Shown piece after piece: positions 4,279-29,539 of a DNA stretch of 29,539 nucleotides. Under the pieces are notes generated by a model, which saw only the letters and a program-made list of their open reading frames with translations, ran no database searches and was not told the origin of the DNA. Source of the DNA: a virus (Duplodnaviria > Heunggongvirae > Uroviricota > Caudoviricetes); the IMG/VR virus record IMGVR_UViG_2554235125_000005, positions 1 through 29,539 of that record. One strand, given 5' to 3'. Made by a program: the position numbers and the translations under genes. The number at the start of each line of letters is the position of its first letter. The first letter of the stretch is position 1.

Positions 4279-4586
4279 CCAATCACCTTAGCGGCCAGCG
4301 ACAGCATATCGGGCAGGTTCATCGCGGTAAGCTCCTGCGCCGTGAGGGCGGGATAGGTCATGCGGGGCAGCACTTTAATCAGCGCATCGACTTCGGACTG
4401 CGCCACCGCTGCCAGACTGACACCGCGCAGGGTACCGGCGTTCGGCTCAATCAGTGTGACTTTATCAATCGTCTGACCGGCACGCTTAATCGGCTTGTCG
4501 AGAGTCACGACGTTCGGGTTTACGGTGTCTATTTCATTGCCAGCCGTATCTACAAATTCAGCGGTTTTACGTGGTACTTTTGCCAT
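4251..4586 (-). CDS. E: Tail assembly chaperone E (zero-frame product)
   Basis: 111-aa ORF immediately upstream of T and downstream of the tail tube gene. Ends just after an in-frame T_TTT_TTG slippery heptamer. Confidence 0.7.
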   Translation of the reverse strand: MAKVPRKTAEFVDTAGNEIDTVNPNVVTLDKPIKRAGQTIDKVTLIEPNAGTLRGVSLAAVAQSEVDALIKVLPRMTYPALTAQELTAMNLPDMLSLAAKVIGFLSPASAE

Positions 4587-4649
4587 GATGTTTTTCTCTG
4601 CTCTGAAAGGGAATTAATAACCGGCCAGCAACACTGACCGGTCAGGGAT

Positions 4650-5168
4650 TTACAGCCCGATTGCGCGGCGGTGCTGTTCCAGACGGTCGACGCCGTTCAC
4701 CTTCTCGACCATGTTGACGGTGTCGATTTCGATGACGTCGCTACCATCAATTGTGAGGCGGTAATAGGTGCAAACGGTCGACAGTTTGGTCGAGGTGTTT
4801 TCACCCTGCTTATTCTCGCCGCCGTCGATTTCTTTATGACGGCCACGCATGACCACCTCGACCGCGATGATTTCGCCAGTGTCGTCGCGTTGGTAAGAGC
4901 CAGCAAAACGCAGCGGCACGGCGTCAGCACCCGGCGCAGCGTATTGCGCCCACAGCGTCACATCGGGCAGGCCACCGACAGACCATTCGACGGTTAACGC
5001 ATCATCGTCGAGACCGAGGTCAATCGCCGCCGCGCCATTCATACCACCGCCGCGATAGTTTTCGAGCTTGCGGGTCAGCTTCGGCAGCGTCACGGATTCA
5101 ACAACGCCCATGTAGCTGAGGCCATCGTTGAACATGTTCAGATATTTGAGTTTGCGGGGTAGTGCCAT
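4650..5168 (-). CDS. FII: Major tail tube protein
   Basis: 172-aa ORF directly downstream of the sheath gene; P2 FII position and size. Confidence 0.8.
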   Translation of the reverse strand: MALPRKLKYLNMFNDGLSYMGVVESVTLPKLTRKLENYRGGGMNGAAAIDLGLDDDALTVEWSVGGLPDVTLWAQYAAPGADAVPLRFAGSYQRDDTGEIIAVEVVMRGRHKEIDGGENKQGENTSTKLSTVCTYYRLTIDGSDVIEIDTVNMVEKVNGVDRLEQHRRAIGL

Positions 5169-5183
5169 GTTGTTTCAGGCTCC

Positions 5184-6362
5184 TTAGCTGTTGACCGATT
5201 CGGCCAGATTCACCAGATATTTATCGGTGATTCGCTGGCGCAGGGTCAGGCTTTCCAGTGGTGGAACCGGCGTATAGTCGTAGTCGATATACAGTTTCCC
5301 GGCCTTGAGGGTTTCCTTATCGTTCGATTCCTCGTCGAACCAGCATTCACCGTCCACGATGTAGCCATTTGATTTCAGCTCGCGGAATTTGGCGTTAATA
5401 CCGTCGACAATGTCACGGATAAGCGATGCGGTGATGGGCTTATCGACCGCCCACATGTGCGCCTCGGCCATCGTGTCGGCCAGAACCTGCGCGGTGCGGG
5501 TGTAGTTCTCAAACAGGAAAAGCGGGTCATCAGAGCAGGTACGGTTACCCCAGAAGCGGAAACCATCCTTGCGCACCAGCGTTGTGACCCCGGCCTCGTT
5601 GAGCAGGTCAGCATCGGTACCGGATGCCTGCAAATCCCAAAAGACTGACGCACTGATGCCGGTGACACCCTGCACGCCGACGTTAGACAGGGTTTTGTGC
5701 CAGCCGACGGTTTGGTCGATGTAGGCACGCAGACCGAGTGCGCGAGCGGTGGCGTAGGCCGTTGCGGTGGCGTTCGCGGTGGTGTCCCATGCGAGGAAGT
5801 CAGGCCAGATAACCATCAGTTCGCGCTGACTGAAATTCTCGCGATAGGCTATCGCTTCGGAAATGGTCTTACAGCCCCATGCGCTGACGTAACCAAATGC
5901 GCGTAGGCTGATACAGACCGACGCAAGTGCGACTGCGACCTCTTTGGTATCGAGACCCGGCACGCCGAGAATGCGCGGCTTAACGCCGGTGACCGCTTCG
6001 GCAGTCAACAGCGCCTTGATACCGGTGTATTTACCGTTCTCATCCGTGCCGCCGATGATGTTAGAAATGGTTTGCGCTTCCGCGTCGTCTCCGGCACCTT
6101 CTGCAACACGCACAACAACGGTGACTGGTTTTGACTGGTCGGCGATAGCCTGCAGGGAGGCAGACAGCGTGCCTTTTTTACCGGCTTTCGCAATGGCGCT
6201 CTGCACATTGGTAATCAGTACCGGCTCGTTGAGGGGAAATGTCGCGGCATCTGCATCGCTGGCCGTACAGACCATACCGACGATTGCAGTCGCGACCGTA
6301 GAAATAACACGCGTACCGTCATTGATTTCGATGACCTGCGTGCCGTGGTGAAAATCACTCAT
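5184..6362 (-). CDS. FI: Contractile tail sheath protein
   Basis: 392-aa ORF (MSDFHHGTQVIEIND...) first in the FI-FII-E-T-U-D operon. GGAG Shine-Dalgarno 8 nt upstream. Confidence 0.85.
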   Translation of the reverse strand: MSDFHHGTQVIEINDGTRVISTVATAIVGMVCTASDADAATFPLNEPVLITNVQSAIAKAGKKGTLSASLQAIADQSKPVTVVVRVAEGAGDDAEAQTISNIIGGTDENGKYTGIKALLTAEAVTGVKPRILGVPGLDTKEVAVALASVCISLRAFGYVSAWGCKTISEAIAYRENFSQRELMVIWPDFLAWDTTANATATAYATARALGLRAYIDQTVGWHKTLSNVGVQGVTGISASVFWDLQASGTDADLLNEAGVTTLVRKDGFRFWGNRTCSDDPLFLFENYTRTAQVLADTMAEAHMWAVDKPITASLIRDIVDGINAKFRELKSNGYIVDGECWFDEESNDKETLKAGKLYIDYDYTPVPPLESLTLRQRITDKYLVNLAESVNS

Positions 6363-19391: not shown

Positions 19392-20438
19392 ATGGGTAAG
19401 CAAAAATCCCGTAAAGCCGCTGCGCAGAAGGCCAGCAAGCCACAACAACTTACCGCCAGCGCACCGCCAAAAACGACAGCGTTCACCTTCGGCGAGCCGG
19501 TGCCGGTACTCGATAAGCGCGATATTCTGGATTACGTCGAGTGCATCAGTAACGGCAAATGGTACGAGCCGCCAGTAAGCTTCTCCGGGCTGGCAAAGAG
19601 CCTGCGCTCTGCCGTGCATCACAGCTCACCGATTTATGTTAAGCGCAACGTACTCGCAAGCACCTACATTCCGCACCCGTTGCTATCCCGTCAGGATTTC
19701 AGCCGTTTTGCACTCGACTATCTGGTTTTCGGCAATGCCTTTCTTGAGCAGCGCAACAGCGTCACCGGCCAGTTAATCAAGCTACTGGCCTCACCGGCCA
19801 AATACACCCGGCGCGGGGTCGACGACTCGATTTTCTGGTTTGTGGAAAACTTCACGCGGCCGCATGAGTTCGCGCCTGATACCGTGTTTCACCTGCTTGA
19901 GCCCGACATTAATCAGGAAATTTACGGCCTGCCTGAATATCTCAGCGCGCTTAATTCCGCCTGGCTGAATGAAGCTGCGACGCTGTTCCGCCGCAAGTAT
20001 TACCAGAACGGAGCGCATGCTGGTTACATCATGTATGTGACCGACCCGGCGCAGAGCGCGACCGACGTCGAATCGCTGCGCGAGGCGATGCGCAACTCGA
20101 AAGGGCTCGGCAACTTTAAGAACCTGTTTTTCTACGCACCCGGCGGAAAACCGGACGGCATCAAAATCGTGCCACTGAGCGAGGTCGCCACAAAGGATGA
20201 CTTTTTCAACATTAAGAAAGCCAGCGCTGCCGACCTGATGGACGCGCACCGCGTGCCGTTCCAGCTTATGGGCGGCAAGCCCGAGAATATCGGTTCACTC
20301 GGTGACGTTGAGAAGGTGGCAAAGGTATTCGTTCGTAACGAGCTGTCACCCCTGCAGGACAGGTTCAGGGAGGTAAACGACTGGCTCGGCATGGAGGTCA
20401 TCAAGTTTAAAGAGTACACCCTCGAAAACCCGGAATAA
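19392..20438 (+). CDS. Q: Portal protein Q
   Basis: 348 aa, P2 gpQ size, immediately after P. Confidence 0.9.
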   Translation: MGKQKSRKAAAQKASKPQQLTASAPPKTTAFTFGEPVPVLDKRDILDYVECISNGKWYEPPVSFSGLAKSLRSAVHHSSPIYVKRNVLASTYIPHPLLSRQDFSRFALDYLVFGNAFLEQRNSVTGQLIKLLASPAKYTRRGVDDSIFWFVENFTRPHEFAPDTVFHLLEPDINQEIYGLPEYLSALNSAWLNEAATLFRRKYYQNGAHAGYIMYVTDPAQSATDVESLREAMRNSKGLGNFKNLFFYAPGGKPDGIKIVPLSEVATKDDFFNIKKASAADLMDAHRVPFQLMGGKPENIGSLGDVEKVAKVFVRNELSPLQDRFREVNDWLGMEVIKFKEYTLENPE

Positions 20439-20480: not shown

Positions 20481-21704
20481 TTAAACTTCGTCTTTACTAT
20501 TTATCATTCTGATATAACTAGGCATACGAGGATCTGAAATTTTATATACCCCTCTAGCTGCCTTTGTAAGGATCGCTCCTTTATCAGCCCTAGTAAAACG
20601 CCCAATATAGTTACTCATGTGATAGTTACTTAATGAAATTCCCGTATCTTCTCGAATTTGGGTAATCCATTCTTGAATGGTAAATTTATTATCTTTGAAT
20701 TTGGCTGCTGCATAAAGTATTGATGGATAAACATCAGTCCTGGATGAAGTAACTGCGTTCTCATAGTCTCTTTTAAGTTGTCCCTCGGTGTTTACTACTG
20801 CTCGCCTCAAAGCTTCAGGAAGAATGTCGGAATTTACTTCGCTTTTACCAGATGATAATACTATATCTGCAGATTCCTTTCCTATAAGATGCGTGAAATA
20901 TGGAAAACCATTGCTAATTTCAACTATAGAGTTTTTAACGTCACTACTAAATGTTATACCCAAGCCACGCTCGCCAGTCTCAATTATTTCATGTAAATAT
21001 TTATCTTCAATTCGAGAGAGTTGAATTTCATGGAGGCATCTGTTCACAGAAGGATGACCTGCTATCAACGAAGCACCGTCACTGGAAATGCCAACTAATA
21101 AAATCTTCAAAGGACTATTGGAATCGCTAAGTTGTTTAACAAACTCAGCGACATCATGCTTAACGTCATCACTGACAACATCAAATTCATCTATTAAAAG
21201 TATTGCATTCAATTCTTCAAGCGCAAAACAGGCTTTACTTGGAGTAAGATCTTCTTTTTCTATCGTGATTTTCTCTTCGGCAGAAACGTCCGCTCTAAAT
21301 AATTTCAAAACATTAAGGCCAACACCTGCTTTTTTAGTAGTCTCTCTTTTATTTGCGGCATATTCACTATCAATAAATATAGCTGGCCTTGCAATAATAT
21401 CTTTGAATTTTGTTTTTTTATCACATCGCACTACAAAAATATTACTAGGTAACACACCTTCATTTTTCCCTCCCTCTAAAGTAGATAAGGCGAGCGAGCT
21501 TTTCCCAATCCCTCTCTCTCCATAAATCATACAATGCTTGCCATCAGTAGTTAAGGTATCGAGGATATGTTCCACCTCGTTATTACGTCCTTTCAAATGG
21601 GTAGGTGCCTCAATAGGTTTAGAGGGTGTAAAATATAAATCAACATTTTTAATTTTATTTTTTTTTGCTTTAAATTTACTGAATATGCTGCTAGTAGTCG
21701 TCAT
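20481..21704 (-). CDS. P-loop NTPase of unknown function (AAA+/STAND-like with C-terminal winged-helix-like region), cargo gene
   Basis: 407-aa ORF with Walker A GERGIGKS and Walker B ILLIDEFD about 100 residues apart. No ABC signature. AGGA Shine-Dalgarno. Strongly AT-rich codon usage. Sits between portal gene and cos. Confidence 0.6.
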   Translation of the reverse strand: MTTTSSIFSKFKAKKNKIKNVDLYFTPSKPIEAPTHLKGRNNEVEHILDTLTTDGKHCMIYGERGIGKSSLALSTLEGGKNEGVLPSNIFVVRCDKKTKFKDIIARPAIFIDSEYAANKRETTKKAGVGLNVLKLFRADVSAEEKITIEKEDLTPSKACFALEELNAILLIDEFDVVSDDVKHDVAEFVKQLSDSNSPLKILLVGISSDGASLIAGHPSVNRCLHEIQLSRIEDKYLHEIIETGERGLGITFSSDVKNSIVEISNGFPYFTHLIGKESADIVLSSGKSEVNSDILPEALRRAVVNTEGQLKRDYENAVTSSRTDVYPSILYAAAKFKDNKFTIQEWITQIREDTGISLSNYHMSNYIGRFTRADKGAILTKAARGVYKISDPRMPSYIRMINSKDEV

Positions 21705-26791: not shown

Positions 26792-27163
26792 TCAGTTAAG
26801 AGCGATACGGTGGTCGATGTAGCGACAATCAATCGCTTGCTGGGTTAGTTTGTCGCGCCATGCTTTCACGTTTACGAGGGTGCGGCTTCGTTTTCCAGCC
26901 TCTTCCTTGTTGGAAAAGTCTTTAGTTGGAGCTTTGAGGAGGATTCCCTCATCAAGCCATTGCCAGACCAGACGCTCGCTTACACCGCGAGTGGCGGCAA
27001 AGTCTTTCACTGTCATTGTGTCTGACATAGCGGAGCGGATCATTGTCTGCAGAGCTGGCAGCATAGCGGTAACGATGGCATCAAACTGAGCCGGATCTAA
27101 CAGCACAGTTTGATTTTGTGAGTTTTGCGAATCATGCGTCGAGATTGATTTTGCATCTGACAT
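26792..27163 (-). CDS. Apl/Cox-like helix-turn-helix protein (excisionase / lytic-switch regulator candidate)
   Basis: 123-aa ORF, first gene of the early lytic operon, divergent from the repressor gene. AGGAGA Shine-Dalgarno. HTH-like VKDFAATRGVSERLVWQWLDEG. Longer than remembered Apl/Cox; the N-terminus is low-complexity. Confidence 0.5.
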   Translation of the reverse strand: MSDAKSISTHDSQNSQNQTVLLDPAQFDAIVTAMLPALQTMIRSAMSDTMTVKDFAATRGVSERLVWQWLDEGILLKAPTKDFSNKEEAGKRSRTLVNVKAWRDKLTQQAIDCRYIDHRIALN

Positions 27164-27240
27164 ATCGCATTATCTCCTGTTGATTGTAGTGAACTGCATT
27201 GATGTGCATCGTGGTTGATAATCATCACTTTAGTTCGCGA

Positions 27241-27270
27241 AATTTAATTTTGCAATGGCAAAAATTAATT
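27241..27270. promoter_or_regulatory. Candidate repressor operator overlapping a leftward early promoter
   Basis: Near-perfect AT-rich palindrome AATTTAATTTTGC-aatg-GCAAAAATTAATT just upstream of the repressor start. On the minus strand TTGCAA-17 nt-TAAAGT could be the early promoter. Confidence 0.35.
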
Positions 27271-27283
27271 TTGGTGGCAATAC

Positions 27284-28120
27284 ATGGCTAAATTTGGAGA
27301 TGGTGCGGCTCCGGCTATCGAAAGAATCCTTTCGGCTTATGGACTTAGCTCGCAAAAAGAACTTGGCGAAAAACTTGGTATTTATGCCAACAACATAAGC
27401 AGTTGGCTTGCCAGAGATAGCGTTCCGGGCAATGTATTTGTTGAATGTGCTATTGAAACGGGCGCAGATATCGGATGGTTAGTGACAGGGGAGCTTGCAA
27501 AAGCAAACTCTCCACGTGCGACCCTGAAGGGCAAAGAGCTTTATGAAAAGGTCATGGCTTCAGGTGGTAAACCTGTTCTGAGACGCATCCTTGATGCTTA
27601 CGGTTTTTCTATGCAAAAGGAGCTGGGTGATTTACTCGGTATATCATCTGGAACAATTAGCACATGGGTTCGGCGTGATTTTTTCCCAGGTGATGTAGTT
27701 GTTACTTGTGCTCTTGATACTGGTGTTTCGCTGGAATGGTTAGCAACCGGCAAGGGGCAAATGCGAACTAACAGAGAAATGGTCACATCAAGTTTTTCAA
27801 TTAAAAAATTTCGCCTTGAAGCGGGTGAGCTTAAGGACGCTGGCGAATGGCATCCAGACCCCTCGATGATACCCTCTGACTCAGAGGAGTTGATTTTTGT
27901 TGAAGGTGTTGGAGCCTCTTGGCTTGTCAACCGTTCTGCTTCGAACATAAGTAATGGGCGTTGGTTAATTGATATTGACGGCGCTCTTGATGTTTTTGAT
28001 GTAATTCGTCTTCCCGGCGGAAAAGTCAGGTTGTCAAATAAGTCTGCTGAGTTTGAATGCAGCATTACAGATATCACACCAGTAGGTGCTGTAATTTTCA
28101 CATTGGAAAAACACGTATAA
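27284..28120 (+). CDS. Immunity repressor, 186 CI-like, with tandemly duplicated N-terminal DNA-binding domain
   Basis: 278 aa. Two homologous about 60-aa segments (residues about 10-70 and 97-160, pattern I.RIL.AYG.S.QKELG..LGI....IS.W..RD..PG.V.V.CA..TG....WL.TG) followed by a C-terminal domain. No GDSM-type peptidase motif seen. Confidence 0.7.
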   Translation: MAKFGDGAAPAIERILSAYGLSSQKELGEKLGIYANNISSWLARDSVPGNVFVECAIETGADIGWLVTGELAKANSPRATLKGKELYEKVMASGGKPVLRRILDAYGFSMQKELGDLLGISSGTISTWVRRDFFPGDVVVTCALDTGVSLEWLATGKGQMRTNREMVTSSFSIKKFRLEAGELKDAGEWHPDPSMIPSDSEELIFVEGVGASWLVNRSASNISNGRWLIDIDGALDVFDVIRLPGGKVRLSNKSAEFECSITDITPVGAVIFTLEKHV

Positions 28121-28128
28121 GGGACATT

Positions 28129-28467
28129 ATGAAACGTAAGCTTTTTTTAGCTTTATTTCTTTCACTTTCTTTCGGTGCATCAGCCGCTGAAAAAACACAG
28201 GATTTAGACGGTGCTAAGTTTGGTGATGATTGGCCGTTAACTTTTGAAAAAGCTACGGTGTCTTGTGTTAATGGTAGATATGCCTTTGTGTACGACAAAG
28301 CAACAGATGACCGATACCCATTAAATGGGTTTGCTATTGATGGTGTAAAGTCTGGAAAGCTTGAGGGGAGCGATATTGATACTGTTTGGAAAGATAGCCC
28401 GGATTATGAAGGAGTAAAAATTCCTTTGGATCCCGTAATGGATGCTGCGACAGCACTTTGCGAATGA
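28129..28467 (+). CDS. Secreted/periplasmic protein of unknown function (lysogenic conversion candidate)
   Basis: Start refined to MKRKLFLALFLSLSFGASAAEK (112 aa): typical Sec signal peptide with AXA site, two Cys in the mature part, AAGGGA Shine-Dalgarno. Lies between repressor and integrase on the same strand. Confidence 0.55.
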   Translation: MKRKLFLALFLSLSFGASAAEKTQDLDGAKFGDDWPLTFEKATVSCVNGRYAFVYDKATDDRYPLNGFAIDGVKSGKLEGSDIDTVWKDSPDYEGVKIPLDPVMDAATALCE

Positions 28468-28489
28468 TAAGAGTTGCCTCGGTGACATT

Positions 28490-29539
28490 ATGACTATAAG
28501 TAAGCAAAAAAATGGCAAATGGTTATGTGAGCTTTATCCTAATGGGCGAGAAGGGCGGCGAATACGTCGGCAATTCAATACCAAAGGTGAGGCCGAGGCA
28601 TTCGAAGCATTTACGAAAAGCGAGAGTGAAGATAAGCCGTGGCTCGGCAAGAAAGAAGACCGCCGACGCTTAAGTGAGATTATCCAGCTTTGGCATAATT
28701 TACATGGACAGGCGTTGGTCGCCAGTAAGTCGCGGTTAGCTAAGCTTCAAATTGTATGTAACGGGTTGGGCGACCCTATTGCATCTCGTCTTACCGCTAA
28801 AGATTGGGCTCATTACCGTGACCGTCGATTACGTGGCGAAATAGACAACGGCTATCACAAAGACCCGGCGAAATGGATCGCCAAACCTATAACTGTCAAT
28901 CGCGAACAGCAATACCTCGAAGCTGTGTTCAATGAACTGCGGCGATTAGGTGAATGGGGTTTACCCAATCCACTGGACGGGATTCGCGTATTCAAAGAAG
29001 CTGAGAAAGAAATGTCCTGGCTAACTTTGTCTCAGCTCCCGGAGCTGTTCCGAGCCTGTGAACAATATGGCAAAGAAAATCTTACTATGATTGTTAAGGT
29101 GTGTCTGGCTACTGGTGCACGATGGGGAGAAGCTGAGAGACTTACACGTCCCCAACTTTCCCCCTGCAAGCTGACTTTCACCAAAACCAAAGGTAAGAAG
29201 AATCGCACGGTTCCGATTCCTAAATGGCTGTATGACGAGTTGTCCGAACGTCAGGGAAGAATGTTCAAGCCCTGCTATCAGGACTTTAAGAAGATGCTCA
29301 AACTTACAAACATTGAATTGACTGAAGGGCAGAAAACGCACGTTTTACGTCACACCTTTGGTGCGCATTTTATGATGAATGGCGGCAATATCCTTGTACT
29401 CCAGAAGATACTCGGTCACGCAAATATTCGTGAAACAATGAAGTATGCGCACTTTGCTCCTGACCATCTTGAACAAGCTGTCACCTTGAATCCGTTGTCA
29501 CTGTGTATTGGCGACAACGTGGCGGCAGAGGTTGCGTAA
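28490..29539 (+). CDS. int: Tyrosine integrase (P2/186 family)
   Basis: Start refined to MTISKQKNGKWLCELYPNG (349 aa). Catalytic-domain motifs ATGARWGEAE, HVLRHTF and MKYAHF. Stop codon at 29537-29539, so attL should lie just beyond the window. Confidence 0.9.
   Translation: MTISKQKNGKWLCELYPNGREGRRIRRQFNTKGEAEAFEAFTKSESEDKPWLGKKEDRRRLSEIIQLWHNLHGQALVASKSRLAKLQIVCNGLGDPIASRLTAKDWAHYRDRRLRGEIDNGYHKDPAKWIAKPITVNREQQYLEAVFNELRRLGEWGLPNPLDGIRVFKEAEKEMSWLTLSQLPELFRACEQYGKENLTMIVKVCLATGARWGEAERLTRPQLSPCKLTFTKTKGKKNRTVPIPKWLYDELSERQGRMFKPCYQDFKKMLKLTNIELTEGQKTHVLRHTFGAHFMMNGGNILVLQKILGHANIRETMKYAHFAPDHLEQAVTLNPLSLCIGDNVAAEVA

Follow-up and report, generated by a model that had tools for sequence, protein, structure and literature searches.

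The 29,539-nt stretch analyzed here (the window; IMG/VR record IMGVR_UViG_2554235125_000005, positions 1 to 29,539, Caudoviricetes) is a 186/PSP3-type (Eganvirus) Escherichia coli prophage, and between its repressor gene cI and its integrase gene int it carries a small open reading frame (ORF) of the DUF2511/YebY family. We propose that this DUF2511 gene is an accessory ('moron'-type) gene with a protective or exclusion role at the envelope. Sequence comparisons leave us highly confident of its identity, its predicted localization and its status as cargo. The explanation as a whole is the best we can offer but is put forward tentatively, at somewhat below an even chance, and the specific mechanism, exclusion or protection at the level of the envelope as suggested by analogy, is more tentative again. 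The gene, its family and its cI-int context are already known, because the gene is annotated in PSP3-like phages and the context was noted in a 2021 study of the YebY structure (PMC8689200). The lysogeny operon has the order cI, DUF2511 gene, int, with the following features:

27284-28120, + strand: cI immunity repressor, 278 aa, first gene of the operon (Pfam Phage_CI_repr twice, E=3.4e-48; Phage_CI_C, E=8.7e-21; PHROG 4)
28119-28124, + strand: Shine-Dalgarno (SD) sequence (T)AAGGGA, overlapping the cI stop, with 4 nt from its last base to the ATG
28129-28467, + strand: DUF2511/YebY-family gene, 112 codons plus TGA (PF10709; PHROG 2950; RefSeq WP_001407049.1)
28129-28185, + strand: predicted Sec (signal peptidase I) signal peptide, residues 1-19, MKRKLFLALFLSLSFGASA (heuristic analysis, 48 alleles)
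28186-28464, + strand: predicted mature periplasmic domain, 93 aa (allele analysis and AlphaFold2 (AF2) model)
28490-29539, + strand: tyrosine integrase, 349 aa, last gene of the operon (Pfam Int_N and Phage_integrase; the window ends at the int stop codon)

The DUF2511 ORF is a real gene under purifying selection. An earlier note on this DNA had described a 112-codon ORF between repressor and integrase, on the same strand and with an AAGGGA ribosome-binding site of its own; we found the ORF at 28129-28467 (+) and the site at 28119-28124, and the type of SD sequence is kept across homologues. The stop codon of cI (TAA) occupies 28118-28120 and that of the DUF2511 gene (TGA) 28465-28467, so that the gene begins 8 nt after the cI stop and ends 22 nt before the int ATG. 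The ORF list contains a longer in-frame version starting at 28057. We took 28129 as the start because the SD sequence and the ATG are conserved there, whereas the upstream ATG is absent in many relatives: the ATG at 28129 is kept in every allele, and nearly all distinct junction variants carry a TAAGGGA/TAAGGAG-type SD sequence with a gap of 8-9 nt between cI stop and ATG. The predicted fold leaves the translation start region unpaired. On the minus strand, the ORF list has entries of 57-66 aa that overlap the gene.

In order to compare alleles we used 74 homologous loci with 49-100% identity, collected from IMG/VR and other look-ups; a scan of species-representative genomes yielded only two loci, and the context statistics are therefore taken from IMG/VR. 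The ORF is intact in all 74 loci with a length of 112-113 codons, and among the 48 distinct proteins there are no pseudogenes. In all comparisons with unsaturated dS, the mature part has a ratio of nonsynonymous to synonymous substitution rates (dN/dS, Nei-Gojobori) of 0.04-0.15. Evolution is much faster in the signal peptide than in the mature domain, but the signal peptide retains its physicochemical pattern. The earlier note had allowed that the ORF might not be translated; purifying selection, the conserved SD sequence and start, the lack of pseudogenes and the clear family membership are all as expected of a real coding gene. The same data bear on the idea of a functionless passenger hitch-hiking in the operon, which would agree with the dispensability of the gene in relatives and with the C111W substitution in one allele group. 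However, a passenger would not be expected to show such dN/dS values, 74 intact ORFs and a conserved SD sequence, nor an association with the cI-int slot that holds down to relatives of ∼31% identity, and we regard this explanation as very improbable.

The product is predicted to be exported and processed. In a heuristic analysis we found all elements of the Sec signal peptide that had been postulated before: a charged n-region (net charge of the first six residues +3), a hydrophobic core (mean Kyte-Doolittle value 2.5) and a cleavage site between residues 19 and 20 (ASA/AEK). A lipobox is absent and there is no Cys at position +1. This architecture, with a charge of +1 to +3, a small residue at -1 and a mostly small one at -3, is retained in 47 of the 48 distinct alleles, and the signal peptide is at the same time the most variable segment of the protein (mean entropy 1.43 versus 0.52 in the core). 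The mature part has a mass of 10.2 kDa and a pI of 4.3 and contains no His and one Met. Its core, residues 35-80, is highly conserved (WPLTF...C46...RYPLNG...VKSGKxEG), and residues 81-105 are variable with a mean entropy of 1.20. The two cysteines noticed earlier in the mature part are C46 (codon at 28264-28266) and C111 (28459-28461). Both are kept in 47 of 48 alleles and correspond in the alignment to C48 and C113 of E. coli YebY, which form a disulfide; a C46-C111 disulfide is accordingly a prediction from the alignment. Mutating either YebY cysteine abolished expression (PMC8689200).

The mature domain, which the earlier note had not recognized, was identified by homology search and structure prediction as the known DUF2511/YebY fold. 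Pfam PF10709 matched with 61.1 bits (cutoff 21, E=1.4e-16, profile positions 5-87 of 87) and PHROG 2950 over positions 1-112 of 112 (E=1e-52), and NCBIfam gave no match for the ORF. By sequence, the YebY structure PDB 7N0J aligned without gaps over residues 33-111 (E=9.5e-8) with both cysteines in register. A Foldseek search of the AF2 model against the PDB matched only YebY 7N0J (E=2e-5, TM 0.62/0.72) and MlbQ, the latter weakly (E 0.02-0.04, 19-22% identity). The signal peptide and extracytoplasmic location that characterize the family were predicted heuristically for 47 of 48 alleles. The likeness to E. coli YebY thus comprises the Pfam family, the fold, the signal peptide, the two cysteines and the W and YPL(N) motifs. 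Positions common to the phage clade and YebY orthologues are G32, W35, C46, T59, Y63-P64-L65, A69, P102 and L110-C111. In contrast, the phage clade differs from YebY by invariant residues of its own, which include P36, L37, F39, N48, R62, G67, K74, G76, K77, E79 and G80, the last five of which lie within the motif V(K/Q)(S/T)GKxEG. A profile search of 1.84 billion representatives returned 788 family members; the phage proteins form one tight subfamily, with a single representative, the clade's own, at E≤1e-30 and the next one at 1e-20.

We then consider where the gene sits. In phage 186, cI directly adjoins int, and locus L084, whose Int is 93% identical, has a cI-int gap of 78 nt without an ORF. 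A survey of 79 loci anchored on the integrase yielded direct junctions (gap 5-46 nt), junctions with DUF2511, and junctions with unrelated ORFs of 64-241 aa. Most of the unrelated ORFs have a signal peptide, a lipobox or a transmembrane (TM) segment. Among them are a lipoprotein with DUF7424, TM-WYL proteins, small TM proteins and a recurrent family with a signal peptide and two cysteines (PHROG 3807), and the main exception is a cytoplasmic-looking bPH-SHOCT protein. Unrelated junction ORFs were located as follows:

L098: 2327-2998
L102: 2569-2967
L103: 2339-2764 and 2793-2987
L117: 2457-2990
L099: 2374-2973
L115: 2204-2929
L119: 2750-2998
L088: 2417-2920

Other slots contain two cargo genes (L005 and L032, ∼4570-4970; L037, L038, L047, L048 and L076, in L076 at 5168-5668; L157, 3619-4119). 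Here DUF2511 is either preceded, on its cI side, by a signal-peptide protein like those of PHROG 3807 or followed, on its int side, by a bPH-SHOCT protein. These comparisons mark the cI-int junction in 186/PSP3-type prophages as a hotspot of cargo directed to the envelope. The sequence CCTCGGT upstream of int was considered as a general cassette-boundary repeat and rejected, as it occurs almost only in DUF2511-bearing loci.

Cargo status, as the earlier note had proposed, is supported by several lines of evidence: the gene is absent or replaced in close relatives, its GC content is low (40.8%, and 27.7% at third codon positions, versus 52.2% for the window), and its alleles vary independently of the flanks. 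Judged by the close relatives that lack it or carry other ORFs in its place, the gene is dispensable for the phage. Of the features by which morons are recognized, presence and absence among relatives and an atypical base composition are both found here. The classical moron with its own promoter and terminator is not what the scan revealed, and the gene relies on transcription of the lysogenic operon.

The position of the gene could also be read as that of an accessory factor of integrase or immunity, a core part of the lysogeny module: DUF2511 lies directly between cI and int in 67 of the 74 loci, and in all 74 it lies between them, seven having an extra gene on one side. The earlier note had named a conserved integrase accessory factor as the reading that would speak against cargo. 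We consider such a role largely refuted, with only the slightest chance left to it, because the gene is absent from 186 and L084 and replaced by unrelated genes elsewhere, because its alleles are independent of those of cI and int, and because its product is predicted to be exported, whereas Int is cytoplasmic. The product also has no DNA-binding domain. It is thus not a cytoplasmic DNA-binding protein co-conserved with Int, as proteins of the Cox/Apl/Xis type are; the cox/apl-like gene of this prophage is found at 26792-27163.

The alleles of the DUF2511 gene assort independently of the cI and int alleles. In L064 and L065, for example, cI is 92-93% and Int 93-97% identical, and DUF2511 is only 51% identical with saturated dS. 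Such divergence between near-identical flanks implies that old alleles have been exchanged by recombination. The association of DUF2511 with the slot also seems old, since P0021 (in L157) and P0022 (in L126), the closest outgroups that we were able to place, likewise directly follow a cI with two helix-turn-helix (HTH) domains. The outgroup alignment was too divergent for a locus scan, and a search with outgroup member P0020 alone found nothing in viral contigs.

We also considered the host gene yebY as a source. In L133-L151 (e.g. L134 4122-4707 and L137 4125-4695), P2-like prophages with an Int 56-62% identical occupy the locus of the small RNA SdsR/RyeA, which is known as the attachment (att) site of phage PhiW104 (PMC7380047). 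Host yebY lies ∼100-130 nt beyond this locus, convergent with int, and its product is 54-77% identical to K-12 YebY. Capture of host yebY by aberrant excision was rejected as a simple origin, because a captured gene should lie on the far side of int, adjacent to att and oppositely oriented, and because identity between the phage clade and YebY is only ∼30%.

The earlier note had predicted expression in the lysogen together with the repressor. From the cI start to the int end we found no promoter-like site in a scan and no convincing terminator; terminator-like matches occurred at chance rate and inside coding sequence. In the record of phage 186, pL and pE are given as the promoters of a lysogenic operon that extends through cI and int, and in that of phage K139 the promoter PL is given for the lysogenic operon cI - orf2 - glo - int. 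Given the tight spacing, the scan results and these operon annotations, cotranscription of the DUF2511 gene with the repressor in lysogens is a well-founded inference by analogy.

The mechanism that we favor would run as follows. The DUF2511 gene would be transcribed with cI from lysogenic (pL-type) and establishment (pE-type) promoters and translated from its own SD sequence; the product would be exported via Sec, cleaved after residue 19 and oxidized to the C46-C111 disulfide. A soluble, acidic protein of ∼10 kDa would then reside in the periplasm of every lysogen and, as a small periplasmic binding protein, would give the lysogen a protective phenotype at the envelope. The leading candidate for this phenotype would be exclusion of superinfecting phage after adsorption, or else protection from another envelope-directed agent. 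Exclusion is favored because the slot is a hotspot for envelope cargo and because K139 carries an exclusion-annotated periplasmic protein, Glo, in the same operon. The K139 GenBank record describes Glo as 'periplasmic protein; involved in phage exclusion' and places it immediately upstream of int. Like the DUF2511 product, which is predicted to be exported, Glo is an exported protein of a P2-family phage (Peduoviridae) whose gene lies downstream of cI and upstream of int in the PL lysogenic operon, and by position and compartment it is the best functional analogue. However, Glo gives no BLASTP alignment at E≤100, has no Pfam family and belongs to PHROG 7270.

Several observations weigh against an exclusion or protective role. 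Since Glo is unrelated in sequence, the argument for exclusion draws on position and compartment alone. PHROG 2950 carries no assigned function, and PADLOC gave no match for the DUF2511 ORF. The confidence of the AF2 model is only moderate (mean pLDDT 69.6, high in the core). The diversity of alleles with saturated dS points to old lineages and recombination and is no proof of positive selection. The C-terminal cysteine is lost (C111W) in L027 and L028 (cluster P0002), and this may mean that the gene is dispensable or decaying in some lineages, or that the allele is altered. Finally, the characterized relatives point elsewhere, YebY to copper import and MlbQ to lantibiotic immunity.

E. coli YebY is the product of the third gene of the copper-uptake (AZY) operon yobA-yebZ-yebY. 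By experiment it is a periplasmic monomer with a C48-C113 disulfide that binds copper weakly and only when reduced (PMC8689200, PMC11923076). A conversion of copper homeostasis could follow if the phage protein were a functional YebY paralogue or mimic acting on the host's CopD-type importer YebZ (with YobA); copper uptake would change and, downstream of it, copper-dependent activation of mar and the antibiotic tolerance of the lysogen. In favor of this idea, the protein does belong to DUF2511 and shares 33% identity with K-12 YebY across residues 33-111, where the cysteines align. When co-expressed, periplasmic YebY reduces the copper accumulation that depends on YebZ (PMC8689200, PMC11923076), and the existence of YebZ-YebY fusions implies physical contact. 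Furthermore, E. coli K-12 carries the AZY operon, and Salmonella, Enterobacter and Klebsiella have DUF2511 beside copD (PMC11923076), so that the carrier hosts probably have an AZY operon. However, the window gene, only ∼33% identical to yebY at the protein level, is flanked by cI and int and not by copC/copD, as genes of the AZY arrangement are, and the host orthologue lies elsewhere. About half of the DUF2511 representatives are not beside copC/copD, and the authors of the YebY structure, who reported YebY genes in some Enterobacteriaceae with a XerD-type recombinase on one side and a phage CI repressor (an HTH protein) on the other, classed this CI-YebY-recombinase operon as unrelated to copper (PMC8689200). 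Few residues are conserved in both clades, and the lack of His and the single Met in the mature part, together with the weak copper binding of reduced YebY, do not favor a copper function. Other cargo at the hotspot has no link to metals, and many old, divergent alleles would be unexpected for a housekeeping-type modulator. A role in copper homeostasis is unlikely in our view, though it is the main rival of the envelope role. Somewhat less likely still is a form of docking in which the YebY mimic would sit on the periplasmic face of the CopD-type importer YebZ and rewire copper entry, and with it the mar activation and antibiotic tolerance that depend on copper, or would block an inner-membrane component used by incoming phages.

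The fold also matches MlbQ of Microbispora (PDB 2MVO/6QFP), a self-resistance protein for the lantibiotic NAI-107 with a disulfide in the same place, and MlbQ has been proposed to bind its cognate lantibiotic (PMC8689200). The phage protein might thus provide immunity by sequestering in the periplasm a lantibiotic-like peptide, a microcin, a colicin domain, a tailocin or a type VI secretion effector. The predicted periplasmic location and the maintenance of diverse alleles would be consistent with such a role. However, MlbQ is a lipoprotein of Gram-positive origin in which the linker is long, and its gene lies beside ATP-binding cassette (ABC) transporters in a lantibiotic cluster, whereas the window gene has neither a lipobox with a Cys at +1 nor a nearby transporter, toxin or lantibiotic gene, and the structural similarity to MlbQ is as weak as given above. 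Lantibiotics, moreover, act mainly on Gram-positive bacteria. We consider peptide-toxin immunity improbable.

For the envelope-directed accessory gene that we prefer, what makes the finding worthwhile is its setting: small exported or membrane proteins recur at the cI-int junction, and the DUF2511 alleles are old and have been shuffled between conserved flanks. It adds to the interest that K139 has, at a comparable position, a protein tied to phage exclusion. If docking on YebZ or another inner-membrane component were true, DUF2511 would be linked to lysogenic conversion, and the cI-int junction of 186-type phages would be a previously undescribed hotspot for small periplasmic effectors.

The same gene is known from the Salmonella phage PSP3 as gp28/orf28 (89% identical). 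Homologues of the same length at the same cI-int position, 72-92% identical, occur in SEN1, SW9/SI22, the Escherichia phages Midge and vB_EcoM-613R3, the Klebsiella phage RCIP0057 and PSP3; we see no substantive difference to them, and the window gene is an allelic variant. They are annotated as 'DUF2511 domain-containing protein' or 'hypothetical protein', in Midge as 'putative periplasmic protein', and a hypothetical protein of E. coli is already named as similar in the PSP3 record. Only ten of 50,697 phage records, all PSP3-like, carry the family, and a query of the actinobacterial type for other phage groups (e.g. mycobacteriophages) returned the same ten records only. Within 5426 complete E. 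coli genomes, 44 (∼0.8%) carry the allele group (at least 80% nucleotide identity), always as a single copy. Matches to DUF2511 on plasmids were discarded as mostly mislabelled chromosomes or host yebY. Mentions of DUF2511 in two proteomics papers were also set aside: one peptide is clearly from chromosomal YebY and the other is merely a table accession.

With regard to the surrounding prophage, prophages of E. coli A38 and TUM14697 match the queried segment from cI to int (27200-29539) at 99.5% identity, and the end of the A38 prophage adjoins yfiB. In the CI of the window the CI-type HTH domain occurs twice in tandem, followed by the CI C-terminal domain, versus one HTH in the CI of 186 (192 aa), and the duplication is common to PSP3-type CI proteins. 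Beyond the operon, three further features were recorded:

27164-27283, no strand assigned: switch region between the cox/apl-like gene and cI (operator-like repeats; lytic and lysogenic promoters presumed)
26792-27163, - strand: cox/apl-like gene, 123 aa, without a Pfam family (position; annotation of the Midge homologue)
20481-21704, - strand: P-loop nucleoside triphosphatase (NTPase), 407 aa (Pfam nSTAND1/AAA_22; weak PADLOC PDC-S59 match; GC 35.9%)

In the switch region the sequence GCRAAAWTTAATTTTG occurs twice, at 27237-27252 and 27258-27273, 21 bp apart, and these repeats are probably operator sites; the copies can also be read as an imperfect inverted repeat. Judged from the annotations of 186 and K139, the region presumably carries the lytic and lysogenic promoters, and a promoter scan of it gave no consensus sigma-70 match. 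The Midge homologue of the 123-aa gene is annotated as 'transcriptional repressor Cox' via HHpred, and in a 2011 survey the PSP3 counterpart was a singleton among Cox/Apl proteins. A search against Rfam found no RNA family in the window. The P-loop NTPase gene lies just after the gene at 19392-20438, which is portal-like by position, and upstream of the replication genes. We read it as probable separate cargo and as a candidate gene for anti-phage defence; P2-type phages have a known variable slot in this region.

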